32,698 nucleotides of DNA from Anaerovoracaceae bacterium (GTDB taxonomy: Bacteria > Verrucomicrobiota > Kiritimatiellia > RFP12 > UBA1067), in contig CAVGIZ010000001.1 in the NCBI GenBank assembly GCA_963629255.1, forward strand, positions 1-32,698. The letters are read 5' to 3'. Below the pieces are notes generated by a model. That model was not told the origin of the DNA. It did not search any database and saw only the letters and a program-made list of their open reading frames with translations. The translations under genes and the position numbers were made by a program. Shown here piece by piece: positions 20,195 through 32,693 of this stretch; within the stretch, counting starts at the first letter, position 1; each line of letters opens with the position of its first letter.

Positions 20195-20328
20195 ACTACT
20201 GTCCCAACCTTCGAGAACATAAATAATAACACAAACCTTCGGACCAGGAACCCAATGCCCCAGCGGTCGCGAAGGTAAACCAACATCCCCCACGCCCAGC
20301 CAACGCCAGGCGTGAGAGTGTCCCACGA

Positions 20329-28514: not shown

Positions 28515-30146
28515 TTACATCATACCGCCCATATCCGGTGCGCCATGTCCGCCACAGCCGCAGGACTCCTTCTTCTCAGGAATGTCCGTGACCATGCAAT
28601 CGGTCGTCAAGAGCAACCCTGCAATGGACGCCGCGTTCTGCAACGCCGAGCGCGTCACCTTCGCCGGATCCACAACGCCTGCCTTCAGCAAGTCGCCATA
28701 TTCGCCCGTACGAACGTTGTAACCATTCGTGCCAGTCGCCTTCTTGACGTTCGCAATGACGAGCGCCGCTTCCTGACCCGCATTATTGACGAGCTTGCGC
28801 AAAGGCGCCTCAATCGCGCGTTCAATGATCTTCGCGCCAACGAGCTCATCGCCCTCCAACTTGAGCGCGTCAATCGCCTTCTGCGCACGCAAATACGCCA
28901 CGCCGCCGCCCGGCACAATGCCTTCTTCAACAGCCGCACGCGTCGCATGCAACGCATCATCCACGCGATCCTTCTTCTCCTTCATCGCCGCTTCCGTCGC
29001 CGCGCCGACCTTGATCAACGCCACGCCGCCCGCGAGCTTCGCCAAACGCTCCTGCAGTTTCTCGCGATCGTAATCAGACGTCGTCTCCTCAATCTGCTTC
29101 TTGATGACCGCAACACGCGCATCGATGTCCGCCTTCTTGCCAAGACCCTCGACAATCGTCGTGTTGTCCTTATCGACAACAACCTTCTTCGCGCGACCAA
29201 GATCCGTCAGCTGAACATTCTCAAGCTTGATGCCGAGGTCCTCGCTGATCAGCTTGCCGCCCGTCAAAATCGCGATATCCTCAAGAATCGCTTTCCGACG
29301 ATCACCAAAGCCCGGCGCCTTCACCGCGCACACCTGGAATGTGCCGCGCAACTTGTTCACGACGAGCGTCGCGAGCGCTTCACCTTCAACGTCCTCCGCA
29401 ATGATCATCAGCGGACGCCCCGTCTTCGCCACAGCCTGCAAAAGCGGCAACATGTCCTGCAAGTTCGAAATCTTCTTCTCAAACAAAAGAATGAGCGGAT
29501 TCTCCAACTCGCATTCCATATCCTCAGGGCTCGTCACGAAATACGGCGACAAATAACCCTTATCGAACTGCATGCCTTCAACAACATCCAGCGTCGATTC
29601 CAGCGTCTTCGCCTCTTCAACCGTGATCGTCCCTTCCTTGCCAACCTTGTCCATCGCGTCAGAAATCATCTTACCGATTTCCGTATCGCCATTCGCAGAA
29701 ATGGTCGCGACCTGCGCAATTTCATCCGCGCTCTTGACCTTCTTTGCCTGCTTCGCGATCGACTCCGTCACCGCCGCCGTCGCCTTGTCAATGCCCGCCT
29801 TCAGCGCCATCGCATTCGCGCCAGCCGTCAAGTTCTTCAAGCCCTCGCGATAAATCGCCTCAGCCAAAAGTGTCGCGGTCGTCGTACCATCGCCCGCAAC
29901 GTCATTCGTCTTCGAAGCGACTTCCTTAACCATCTGCGCACCCATGTTCTCAAACGGATCCGGAAGCTCAATCTCCTTCGCAACCGTCACACCGTCCTTC
30001 GTAATCTGCGGCGACCCAAACTTCTTGTCCAGAATCACATTGCGACCAGACGGCCCCAACGTCGACGTCACCGCCGCCGACAACTTCTCAATGCCCGCCA
30101 AAATTTTCTGCCGCGCATCTGCGTCAAACTTAATCTGCTTTGCCAT
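28515..30146 (-). CDS. groL: Chaperonin GroEL
   Basis: 543 aa. Motifs: [23 protein letters not shown]-terminal ...GAPDMGGMM. Confidence 0.97.
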
Positions 30147-30164: not shown

Positions 30165-30452
30165 TTACTTGTCCAACACGCCCAGAAGGTCCTCTTCACG
30201 GACGAGCTGCAACTTCTTGCCATCAAGCTTAATTTCCGTCCCACCGTACTTCGGCAGGAGCACCGTGTCGCCAGCCTTGACATCGAACGCAATCTCCTTG
30301 CCATCCTTGTCCAGCTTCTTGCCAACGGCAATCACCTTACCCTGCATCGGCTTTTCCTTGGCCGAGTCAGGAATAATAATCCCGCCCACGGTCTGTTCCT
30401 TTTCTTCAACGGGCTCAACGAGCACGCGATCACCCAACGGTCTAATCTTCAT
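30165..30452 (-). CDS. groS: Co-chaperonin GroES
   Basis: 95 aa. [44 protein letters not shown]. Confidence 0.97.
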
Positions 30453-30491: not shown

Positions 30492-32456
30492 TTATTTCAT
30501 TGTAAAGTCAGCATCGACGACGTCATCGCCATCCTTCTTGTTGCCGCCATTCGCCGCGCCACCATTCGGCGGCGGCGTCCCCGCACCAGCCGCACCCGCG
30601 CCCGGGTTCGCACCCGCGCCCGGGTTCGCACCCGCCGCGCCAGTAGCCCCGGCCGCACCCGCCGAATACATCTCCTGCGCCACAGGTTCCATCGCCTTCA
30701 TCAGCGCCTCCTGCTTCGCCTTGATGGACTCAATCGGTGCCGCCGGCGTCTTCGCCAGCTCCTCCTTCAACGCCTTCAACGCCGCCTCAACCGGCGCCTT
30801 CTTCTCCGCGGCAATCTTATCCCCCGCATCCTTCAGCGTCTTCTCGACCTGGAAGGCCAAGCCATCCGCCTTGTTGCGTTCCTCAACTTCCGCATGACGC
30901 TTCTCATCTTCCGCCGCGTGCGCTTCCGCATCACGACGCATCTTCTCAATCTCTTCCTTGGACAAACCGCCCGCGGCAGTAATCGTAATCTTCTGCTCCT
31001 TCTGCGTCCCAAGATCCTTCGCCGACACATTCAAAATGCCATTCGCATCAATATCGAACGTCACCTCAATCTGCGGCACGCCCCGCGGCGCCGGCGGAAT
31101 CCCATCCAGGTTGAAATTGCCCAAGCTCTTGTTATCACGCGCCATCTTACGATCGCCCTGGAAAATCGCAATCGTCACCGCCGGCTGATTATCCGCCGCC
31201 GTCGAAAACACCTGCGACTTCTTCGTCGGAATCGTCGTGTTGCGCTCAATCAAAGGCGTCATCACACCACCAAGCGTCTCAATCCCGAGCGTCAACGGCG
31301 TCACATCGAGGAGCAACACATCCTTCACTTCGCCCTTCAAAATGCCGCCCTGAATCGCCGCGCCCATCGCAACCACCTCATCCGGGTTCACACCCTTGTG
31401 CGGTTCCTTGCCAAACAAGCTCTTCGCCTTCTCCTGAATAAGCGGCATACGCGTCTGACCACCCACCAAGACAACCTCATCAACCGAACTCAAGTCCGCA
31501 TCCTGCATGCACTTCCGGCACGGCTCGCTCGTCCGATTCACCAAGTCCATCGTCAGCGTCTCCAATTTCGAACGCGTCAAAGACGTCGTCAAATGCTTCG
31601 GACCCGTCGCATCCGCCGTGATGAACGGCAAATTGATGTCATAGCTCGTCGCGCTCGACAACGCGCACTTCGCCTTCTCCGCTTCCTCTTTCAAACGCTG
31701 CAACGCCATCATATCGTTGCCCAAGTCAATCCCCTGCTGCGCCTTGAAGTCCTCGATCATCCACTTCATGATCGCCTGGTCAAGGTCATCGCCACCCAAA
31801 TGCGTATCACCATTCGTCGCCTTCACCTCGAAAACGCCATCGCCAATATCAAGAATCGAAATATCAAACGTGCCGCCACCAAAGTCGTACACCGCAATCT
31901 TCTCGTTTTTCTTCTTGTCGAGTCCATACGCCAAGCTCGCCGCCGTCGGTTCATTCACAATACGCTTCACGTCTAGCCCGGCAATCTTGCCCGCATCCTT
32001 CGTCGCCTGACGCTGCTGGTCGTTGAAGTACGCCGGAACCGTAATCACCGCTTCCGTAATCTTCTCACCCAAAAACGCCTCCGCATCTTCCTTCAACTTC
32101 CGCAACACCATCGCGGAAATCTCCTGCGCCGTGTAAACCTTATCGTTCACCTTCACCGCAGCATCCCCATTCGGCGCCGCCACCACCTCGTACGGAACCA
32201 TCTTAATCTCGTCCGTCATCTCATCAAACCGACGCCCAATGAAACGCTTAATCGAGTAAATCGTCGACTTCGGATTCGTCACCGCCTGACGCTTCGCAGC
32301 CTGACCCACCAAAATCTCACCCGTCTTTGTAAATGCAACAATCGACGGAGTCGTCCGCGCGCCTTCCTTATTAGGAATCACCGTCGCCTCTCCGCCTTCC
32401 ATAACAGCCATACAGCTGTTTGTCGTGCCCAAGTCAATACCAAGTACCTTTGCCAT
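30492..32456 (-). CDS. dnaK: Molecular chaperone DnaK
   Basis: 654 aa from ATG 32456 ([18 protein letters not shown]). Motifs: [24 protein letters not shown]. The 50-codon N-terminal extension in the ORF track (GQ-rich) is an artefact of the upstream GTGGGAC repeats. Confidence 0.97.
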
Positions 32457-32506
32457 ATCTATATTCTCTACTTTCTGCCACCCACCATGAGTGACACCCA
32501 ATACCC

Positions 32507-32522
32507 AGCACAACCCATGCCA
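32507..32522 (-). promoter_or_regulatory. Candidate sigma54-type -24/-12 promoter upstream of dnaK
   Basis: The minus strand reads TGGCATGGGTTGTGCT, against the consensus TGGCACG-N4-TTGCW. GG and GC are at the canonical 12-nt offset. The GC lies about 50 nt upstream of ATG 32456. Confidence 0.35.
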
Positions 32523-32565
32523 AGGCCCAAAAACCGCCGCGCTCAGCCCAAATCTGTGCCAAAGA

Positions 32566-32606
32566 GTCCCACTTTGTCCCATCCCCCCCTGTCCCACTTG
32601 TCCCAC
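32566..32606 (-). promoter_or_regulatory. Two tandem pairs of heptad direct repeats (GTGGGAC-AA-GTGGGAC ... ATGGGAC-AAA-GTGGGAC) upstream of dnaK
   Basis: The plus strand carries GTCCCA at 32566, 32576, 32591 and 32600. This hexamer is otherwise not enriched in the window. The repeats lie 45-85 nt upstream of the sigma54-like element. Confidence 0.5.
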
Positions 32607-32620
32607 CTTAGCTCACGGCG

Positions 32621-32640
32621 CGGGGGGCGCCGCCCCCCGT
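32621..32640. repeat. 20-nt GC hairpin (copy 2 of 2)
   Basis: Identical to 8589-8608. Confidence 0.9.
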
Positions 32641-32677
32641 TGTCATTGTTTCCACCCCGCCCAGGGCCCCTTCCTCG

Positions 32678-32693
32678 CGCGTAAGCAACCTAA
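32678..32693. repeat. 16-mer CGCGTAAGCAACCTAA (copy 2 of 2)
   Basis: Identical to 8505-8520. The window ends 5 nt later. Confidence 0.9.

Follow-up and report, generated by a model that had tools for sequence, protein, structure and literature searches.

The four GTGGGAC-type heptads that lie in two tandem pairs upstream of dnaK-groES-groEL in a Kiritimatiellia genome are probably an array of half-sites, forming the upstream activator sequence of a sigma-54 promoter that drives these chaperone genes. The heptads are on the minus strand of a 32,698-nt stretch of DNA (contig CAVGIZ010000001.1, positions 1 to 32,698; hereafter "the window"), which belongs to a 2.2-Mb assembly that is 88% complete (hereafter G000, with C-numbered contigs). 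By the mechanism established for promoters of this class, sigma-54 RNA polymerase would bind a −24/−12 box (32522-32507) as a closed complex. Such a complex cannot open DNA unaided, and an activator ATPase is required. An AAA+ enhancer-binding ATPase on the heptads, which sit at ~−59 to −109 from the predicted dnaK start, would contact the polymerase from the same face of the helix and would spend ATP on opening the dnaK promoter. A single activator common to dnaK, clpB, and hsp20 would make these genes a proteostasis regulon, presumably a heat-shock regulon, and sigma-54 activator control would stand in for HrcA/CIRCE and sigma-32.

A half-site array ahead of the dnaK promoter

A first-pass annotation of the window had described the four heptads, and its minus-strand sequence and coordinates matched exactly on re-reading. 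GTGGGAC occurs at 32606-32600, 32597-32591, and 32572-32566, and ATGGGAC at 32582-32576. The minus strand from 32608 to 32555 reads aG-GTGGGAC-AA-GTGGGAC-AGGGGGG-ATGGGAC-AAA-GTGGGAC-TCTT-TGGCACA. After a shift of one base, the functional unit is TGGGACA rather than GTGGGAC, and each unit is a perfect left half-site, YGNGACA (9.7-10.9 bits), of a palindrome found in related genomes (see below). The annotation had missed this shift, a fifth heptad (TGGCACA), and the link to the sigma-54 box, which it had logged separately. The fifth heptad is kept upstream of clpB as TGGCACG and in a sister genome, L112, as TGGCACA. The array consists of the following elements:

32599..32605, minus strand: half-site 1, TGGGACA, at ~−109 to −103 from the predicted start; 10.9 bits against the relatives' half-site matrix
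32590..32596, minus strand: half-site 2, TGGGACA, at ~−100 to −94; the same 9-bp-register pair occurs before clpB on C152
32575..32581, minus strand: half-site 3, TGGGACA, at ~−85 to −79; at the same promoter distance in sister genome L112
32565..32571, minus strand: half-site 4, TGGGACT; right half of a degenerate palindrome centered at 51 bp and left half of one centered at 41 bp
32555..32561, minus strand: fifth heptad, TGGCACA; right half-site TGTCNCR with one mismatch, the promoter-proximal site

The promoter, TGGCATGGGTTGTGCT, begins 43 bp downstream of the last heptad and ends 50 bp before the dnaK ATG. Within a TGGCAC-N5-TTGCW context, its GG and GC keep a spacing of exactly 10 bp, the signature by which we recognize a sigma-54 box. 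The promoter and the presumed operon are laid out as follows:

32507..32522, minus strand: sigma-54 promoter TGGCATGGGTTGTGCT, with GG at −25/−24 and GC at −13/−12; 19.9 bits against the promoter matrix
32476..32496, minus strand: predicted transcription start at ~32496, placed from the −12 position, and 5'-terminal leader hairpin
30492..32456, minus strand: dnaK, with its ATG at 32456-32454
30165..30452, minus strand: groES, 39 bp past dnaK
28515..30146, minus strand: groEL, last gene of the presumed operon

The longest dnaK ORF opens with a GTG, which was rejected as the start in favor of the ATG at 32456. Between dnaK and groES, we found no promoter-like element. Members of the genus keep the leader hairpin of dnaK, three of its five pairs showing compensatory changes among 12 members, and a purine-rich ribosome-binding stretch follows it; the hairpin may serve as a 5'-end stabilizer or a thermosensor. 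On the other side of the array, upstream of the heptads, there is a GC hairpin, GGGGGGCGGCGCCCCCC, and a word, TTGCTTACGCGCG (window 32621-32640 and 32670-32690), the latter resembling TTACGCGCGTAA repeats upstream of gltB.

Four copies of TGGGAC within 41 bp are far above chance. Same-strand clusters of this hexamer (at least three copies, spacing ≤30 bp) occur only three times in the 2.2-Mb assembly: before dnaK (four copies), at C152:314-342 before clpB (three copies), and on C47 (three copies). Two of the three therefore precede chaperone genes. The third (C47:1720-1758) consists of three copies of ATGGGACG at spacings of 18 and 14 bp and is unrelated. Single copies are another matter. The first-pass annotation had called the hexamer rare in the window, a description that fails on counting: TGGGAC/GTCCCA has 16 copies vs 13.7 expected, and GTGGGAC has six vs 3.3 expected. 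Two copies that the annotation had drawn attention to in the leader of a DEAD-box helicase gene are in fact at 20201-20206 and 20320-20325. These are single copies 119 bp apart, with no sigma-54 box or palindrome nearby; they look like chance, and we rejected them as part of the regulon.

Scans of a larger sequence collection returned mostly unrelated TGGGACA repeat families in other phyla, with L112, and perhaps L220, being informative. In L112 (CAVIVB010000015.1), the dnaK leader and promoter are nearly identical to those in the window, and the array reads TGGGACAG-TGGGACAGA-TGGGACAGGAGGTAGC-TGGGACAAAG-TGTGACATGT-TGGCACA. Its three proximal heptads have promoter distances identical to those in the window, and the flanks have diverged. 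We also considered a divergent upstream gene as the target of the heptads. In L112, the gene on that side is oriented like dnaK, and ~175 bp separate its end from the array; the heptads are therefore not part of a divergent promoter. L220 (positions 1-140) is a metagenome contig with about eight TGGGACAGG/TGGGATA repeats and a strong sigma-54 box, TGGCATGAATTTTGCT, directly after them, followed by small non-chaperone ORFs. The unrelated arrays (loci L091-L254) come from soil metagenomes, Pyrinomonadaceae, Rikenellaceae, Bacteroidales, and Xenorhabdus; one recurrent type has TGGGACAGTTGGGACATCCGGATTGGGACAA followed by GTCATTGTCCGTTTCATCA, and these arrays may be the ends of mobile elements.

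The existence of such repeat families in many other phyla and metagenomes, together with the G-run between the two heptad pairs in the window, could suggest that the heptads arose through slippage or from a repeat element, with no regulatory role and a promoter as their neighbor by chance. We regard this as very improbable. Of only three clusters in the genome, two are found ahead of chaperone genes and are equally distant from near-identical sigma-54 boxes; the proximal sites are conserved in position in the sister species despite diverged flanks; and every heptad perfectly matches a half-site of a motif that was defined independently in relatives.

A phased palindrome in related chaperone promoters

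We compared the dnaK upstream regions of 28 related genomes; 15 belong to the genus of G000 and 13 to other families of its order. A strong −24/−12 box precedes dnaK in 26 of the 28, at 45-120 bp ahead of the ATG; in the genus, the box mostly begins 64-66 bp ahead of the ATG. Similarly, clpB and hsp20 have sigma-54 boxes in nearly all members of the genus and in many other families. A palindrome, GACA-N3-TGTC, recurs upstream of these boxes, with 28 occurrences in 51 promoter regions from the genus vs 0.1 in shuffled sequences, and seven occurrences in the 22 other-family regions. Their consensus is YGNGACA-WWW-TGTCNCR (also written YGNGACA-N3-TGTCNCR or, in shorter form, GNGACA-N3-TGTCNC). 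Although positions −7 and +7 lie outside the search pattern, 70 of 72 half-sites have a conserved G there. With a 17-bp matrix, at least one site of at least 14 bits is found in 51 of the 73 promoters.

The position of the palindrome relative to the promoter is also constrained. Site centers fall ~29-30, 40, 50, 61, 83, 95, and 106 bp upstream of the −24 box, a period of ~11 bp (Rayleigh p ~1e-14, a value that is inflated because the sequences are related). Across these sigma-54 chaperone promoters, the palindromes lie −55 to −135 from the start site. This arrangement, with conserved and repeated sites in phase 55-135 bp ahead of a sigma-54 start, is what an upstream activator sequence typically looks like.

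The two best 17-mers in the window are TGGGACT-CTT-TGGCACA, centered 41 bp upstream of the box, and TGGGACA-AAG-TGGGACT, centered 51 bp upstream; both centers fall on phased positions used in relatives. These degenerate palindromes (TGGGACAAAGTGGGACT, 7.1 bits, and TGGGACTCTTTGGCACA, 8.7 bits) share half-site 4, such that the fourth heptad is a member of two overlapping sites. Only the promoter-proximal TGGGACT-CTT-TGGCACA retains partial dyad symmetry. The two distal heptads have the same orientation, a 9-bp register, and no dyad partner. From these comparisons, the enhancer appears to have drifted in this species and its sister to half-sites of the same orientation in a 9- to 10-bp register. 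Since the consensus heptad, TGTSACA, is nearly palindromic, direct and inverted arrangements differ by only a few bases, which offers a plausible route from ancestral dyads to a direct-repeat array.

Two other chaperone loci in G000 have the same upstream elements. On C152, directly upstream of clpB, the sequence is GTGGGAC-AG-GTGGGAC-AAGGGGA-GTGGGAC-TTTC-TGGCAC, then 28 bp, then TGGCATGGATTGTGCT. The layout is that of dnaK, i.e., heptads, TGGCAC, and a near-identical sigma-54 box at the same distance, and the clpB 17-mer, TGGGACT-TTC-TGGCACG, is likewise centered at 41 bp. Upstream of hsp20 (C60), a palindromic copy, GTGACTTTTTGTCGC, lies 32 bp upstream of the sigma-54 box TGGCACGGTGTATGCT. 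The upstream sites are thus shared among the three loci, as a heptad array before dnaK and clpB and as a palindrome before hsp20, and the motif that they represent is enriched and phased in relatives.

These comparisons bear on what kind of regulator the heptads serve. The first-pass annotation had asked whether the heptads recur upstream of related chaperone genes. The exact GTGGGAC heptad is not conserved there, and the related inverted repeat is. The annotation had also likened the tandem heptads to a direct-repeat repressor operator of the CtsR type. In Firmicutes, the CtsR box is A/GGTCAAA-N3-A/GGTCAAA, a repressor site that overlaps a sigma-70-type promoter. Both elements place heptad repeats upstream of stress or chaperone genes. 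The sequences are unrelated, however, and the element described here is an inverted repeat in 51 of the 73 related sigma-54 chaperone promoters, is helically phased, and lies upstream of a sigma-54 promoter; the CtsR analogy is accordingly unsupported.

We also scanned G000 with a matrix built from the relatives' dnaK promoters. The scan gave ~15 credible intergenic sigma-54 promoters. They include the chaperone loci (dnaK-groES-groEL, clpB, and hsp20), a pilin gene adjoining one of the activators described below, and a nitrogen-assimilation group (gdhA, type III glnN, gltB, PII, carB, and hisC). This last group is a second sigma-54 regulon, for nitrogen and amino-acid assimilation, with promoters at C9:20242, C44:5505, C70:5126, C14:10788, C125 (rc 1578), and C91 (rc 225), with upstream motifs of the TGTAAA/TTTACA and TTACGGCTGGT types. 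Ahead of two sigma-54 promoters that serve tiny ORFs (C24:3100-3325 and C34:6280-6501), another palindrome, AAAGGTGCCACCTTTT, occurs in four copies. A CGCGGCA/TGCCGCG word that occurs beside many sigma-54 promoters was considered as a shared element and dropped.

Classical regulators and candidate activators

Heat-shock control is, in the textbook account, a matter of sigma-32 or of the repressors HrcA, CtsR, and HspR. The first-pass annotation had reported no CIRCE or HAIR element near the chaperone genes of the window, and this is upheld across the genome. CIRCE (TTAGCACTC-N9-GAGTGCTAA) has no match in G000, even with up to four mismatches, and none in 39 dnaK upstream regions of the phylum. 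HAIR (CTTGAGT-N7-ACTCAAG) has no exact match in G000; seven matches have two or fewer mismatches, none of them at chaperone genes (the hspR gene itself was not searched for). No CtsR box occurs at stress genes, the one exact match to a loose pattern being elsewhere in the genome (the ctsR gene was likewise not searched for). The annotation had also called for a genome check for hrcA and rpoH, and neither was found. G000 has no PF01628 match for hrcA, and no protein reaches the cut-off for rpoH, although with an assembly that is 88% complete both absences are likely rather than proven. The search with TIGR02392 for RpoH returned only two large sigma-70-type proteins, at 125-135 bits vs a cut-off of 323. 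Binding sites for the regulator of a chaperone or stress regulon are the most likely identity of the heptads, in line with the annotation's proposal of a chaperone or stress regulator. Its description of that regulator as "undescribed" does not stand, as sigma-54 chaperone regulons are known.

The sigma-54 machinery is present. G000 encodes rpoN (a PF04552 match on C111) and three activators, each with a strong PF00158 match and an HTH_8 DNA-binding domain:

C87: activator of REC-AAA+-HTH type, adjoining the sigma-54-driven pilin gene
C91:4586-5941: activator of REC-AAA+-HTH type (hereafter C91a), following a cytoplasmic PAS histidine kinase (C91:5938-6999) and preceding a Ser/Thr kinase
C91:179-1696: activator of GAF-AAA+-HTH type (hereafter the GAF protein)

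Judging from gene content and cross-genome comparison, the likeliest activator of the chaperone promoters is the PAS-kinase/response-regulator pair on C91, an assignment that we rate at slightly better than even. Every genome examined has an activator of the C91a type, and in six of them no other activator was detected. Synteny of the kinase-regulator pair extends across the order, and the recognition region of C91a, LGISRRTLHRKL, is invariant except in G034. G034 has a single enhancer-binding protein (C58:31479-32813) with a divergent HTH, LGIPLRTLYRRL, and its dnaK and clpB promoters have TGGCAC-type repeats in place of GACA-N3-TGTC. G034 also has many more sigma-54-like boxes than the control count. 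Two further genomes, G002 and G024, have only the C91a type. Their intergenic sigma-54 promoters are limited to hsp20, clpB, and one lipoprotein gene, the last of which also carries GAGACATTTTGTCGC; no nitrogen-gene sigma-54 promoters appear in either genome. The best NCBIfam match of C91a is AtoC, below the family cut-off.

Elimination within G000 alone pointed to a different protein, and the cross-genome comparison reversed that choice. One of the three activators adjoins a pilin gene with its own sigma-54 promoter, and the promoter of the C91a operon has an upstream motif in common with carB, suggesting that C91a is an autoregulated NtrC-like nitrogen regulator. This leaves the NifA-like GAF protein (C91:179-1696), whose GAF domain might, in principle, respond to temperature or to a stress ligand, as the cognate activator of an otherwise correctly recognized sigma-54 enhancer. 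We consider this rather unlikely. Full-length orthologs of the GAF protein are missing from near-complete genomes, namely, G029 (99%), G034 (98%), and G038 and G039 (92%), that keep sigma-54 chaperone promoters and, in some cases, also the palindrome. Moreover, G002 and G024 retain the palindrome and the sigma-54 box at clpB and hsp20 without a GAF protein. The best family match of the GAF protein is NifA (439 bits, below the cut-off), and its presence tracks that of a sigma-54-driven glnN paralog: 15 genomes have both, five have neither, one has only glnN-A, and five have only the GAF protein.

Several observations weigh against an activator-bound enhancer served by C91a. (i) The full 17-mer scores 7-9 bits in the window vs 15-23 bits in relatives. 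(ii) The distal direct repeats do not fit a simple dimeric Fis-type HTH. (iii) The enhancer is rather close to the promoter, with site centers from ~−55. (iv) Basal dnaK and groEL expression is needed and is not obviously supplied by a strictly activator-dependent promoter. (v) The assignment of the activator is circumstantial, in a genome that is only 88% complete: the operon of C91a (hisC, AMP-ligase, kinase, and regulator, behind a sigma-54 promoter) has an upstream motif resembling that of carB, i.e., of the nitrogen/amino-acid class, and not the heptads. (vi) The L1 loop reads GAFTDA instead of GAFTGA in C91a and the GAF protein. The third activator has GAFTGA, and the F-T pair is intact in all three. 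GAFTDA also occurs in this sigma-54-contacting loop in the G015 ortholog, with GAFTGA, GSFTGA, or GTFTGG in orthologs elsewhere.

For basal expression, an extra sigma-70 promoter may lie beyond the contig end. L112 has two tandem copies of GCGAAGTTATGGTCAT ~60-20 bp upstream of the heptad array (in reverse-complement orientation), and the core of GCGAAGTTATGGTCAT resembles the genome's housekeeping −10 word, ATATGGTATAAT. This tandem may be a sigma-70 promoter for basal dnaK expression in L112; the corresponding region of the window falls past the contig end.

The direct-repeat form of the sites and their proximity to the promoter also raise the question of whether the heptads bind a separate, non-AAA+ regulator, such as a heat-labile repressor, an anti-activator, or an architectural protein, that modulates looping or blocks the activator. 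The activator itself would then bind elsewhere or act from solution, like chlamydial CtcC or Helicobacter FlgR; the chlamydial activator is not known to have a DNA-binding domain and would hence have no enhancer sites. Direct repeats with a 9- to 10-bp register, as in G000 and L112, resemble the sites of winged-helix response regulators more than a Fis-type dyad, and the operator analogy drawn in the first-pass annotation points the same way. We nevertheless consider a separate regulator improbable. All three activators in G000 have an HTH_8 DNA-binding domain. The palindrome is the only element conserved before all three gene classes in dozens of genomes, leaving no other candidate enhancer, and no second conserved motif was seen. 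Furthermore, sigma-54 promoters are silent without an activator, such that a repressor would be unneeded. An upstream activator sequence bound by the activator itself thus remains the preferred account of the heptads.

Phylum-wide breadth, precedents, and significance

In a sample of 60 high-quality genomes from the phylum, we fetched 40 dnaK upstream regions, 39 of which were long enough for analysis. A sigma-54 box of at least 14 bits precedes dnaK in 12 of 14 regions from other families within the family, order, or class, and in 16 of 25 from other classes. Upstream of these boxes are TGTGACA, TGAGACA, or TGGCACA heptads, some of them direct repeats (e.g., GTGAGACAAGGTGAGACA in G097). Several further genomes have weaker boxes at a fixed distance of 11-12 nt before the dnaK ATG. 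Boxes ending 11-12 nt before the ATG come from two families (G048, G091, G097, G051, G062, and G082; loci L316, L317, L319, L318, L330, and L334, respectively); a box in this position would put the start on the ATG, giving a leaderless dnaK mRNA. Only one of 61 phylum genomes has hrcA, and that genome is G034 (C108:474-1133), the one with the divergent activator.

Sigma-54 control of chaperones is already known as a kind, and the direct-repeat form of the enhancer is specific to this lineage. In Flavobacterium psychrophilum, Guerin et al. (2021, PMC9723704) mapped the sigma-54 (motif SM4) promoters of a protein-quality-control regulon by transcription-start profiling, before groESL, dnaK, grpE-dnaJ, htpG, lon, and clpB; the authors left the chaperone activator open. 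There, as here, core chaperones are behind −24/−12 promoters, and there are about three enhancer-binding proteins per genome. F. psychrophilum differs in belonging to the Bacteroidota and in having mapped promoters; that study defined no enhancer motif, whereas for Kiritimatiellia, in the PVC group, we propose an enhancer motif, its phasing, and a candidate two-component activator from sequence alone. Sigma-54-dependent grpE and groES have also been reported for Bacteroides, as cited in an in-silico survey (PLoS One 2025, PMC12316311). In its relevant passages, the survey describes an enrichment of chaperone COGs behind predicted sigma-54 promoters for Bacteroidota and Planctomycetota, the genes being those for GroEL, GroES, IbpA, GrpE, DnaJ, DnaK, and ATP-dependent proteases; the same passages mention Verrucomicrobiota only for motility and do not analyze upstream activator sites. 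Our literature searches found no papers on sigma-54 chaperone control in Verrucomicrobiota or Kiritimatiellia.

Two systems offer parallels for the activator. In Myxococcus xanthus, expression of the heat-shock gene lonD is activated by the HsfB/HsfA phosphorelay (Ueki and Inouye 2002, as cited in PMC9109919). As we propose for the C91 pair, this relay couples a histidine kinase to an NtrC-like sigma-54 activator, which acts directly on a heat-shock gene through sites upstream of it. The differences are that HsfB is a hybrid kinase and that the targets are a single protease gene together with genes for secondary metabolites and pili, not dnaK-groESL, clpB, or hsp20. In Chlamydia, also of the PVC group, a sigma-66 and a sigma-54 promoter stand in tandem before the hrcA-grpE-dnaK operon, and the sigma-54 two-component system is AtoS/AtoC (PMC8762339). 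The likeness to G000 lies in a sigma-54 promoter on the dnaK operon and in a PAS-kinase/NtrC-type pair, of which Chlamydia has a single one; the difference is that Chlamydia retains HrcA/CIRCE and the sigma-66 promoter.

A broader possibility, which we put forward only tentatively and think somewhat doubtful, is that one orthologous pair of a PAS kinase and an NtrC/AtoC-type activator reading GNGACA-N3-TGTCNC is the master positive regulator of dnaK-groESL, clpB, and hsp20 across Kiritimatiellia and much of Verrucomicrobiota. Such a pair would have taken over from HrcA and sigma-32, as a free-living counterpart of chlamydial AtoS/AtoC (CtcB/CtcC). If this is true, the direct-repeat array would show that an activator can assemble on half-sites of the same orientation one helical turn apart.

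The locus described here is a well-resolved case of a third design for chaperone control, in which essential chaperones would be kept behind a promoter that is silent until an ATP-driven activator fires. To this design, our analysis contributes an explicit enhancer motif, its helical phasing, two candidate activators, and a phylum-wide span in which 60 of 61 sampled genomes are without hrcA. In cultivable relatives such as Kiritimatiella, Akkermansia, and Victivallis, it opens to direct testing the questions of what senses proteotoxic stress and where basal chaperone expression comes from, and it offers a rule for annotating chaperone promoters in gut and sediment metagenome-assembled genomes of the group.

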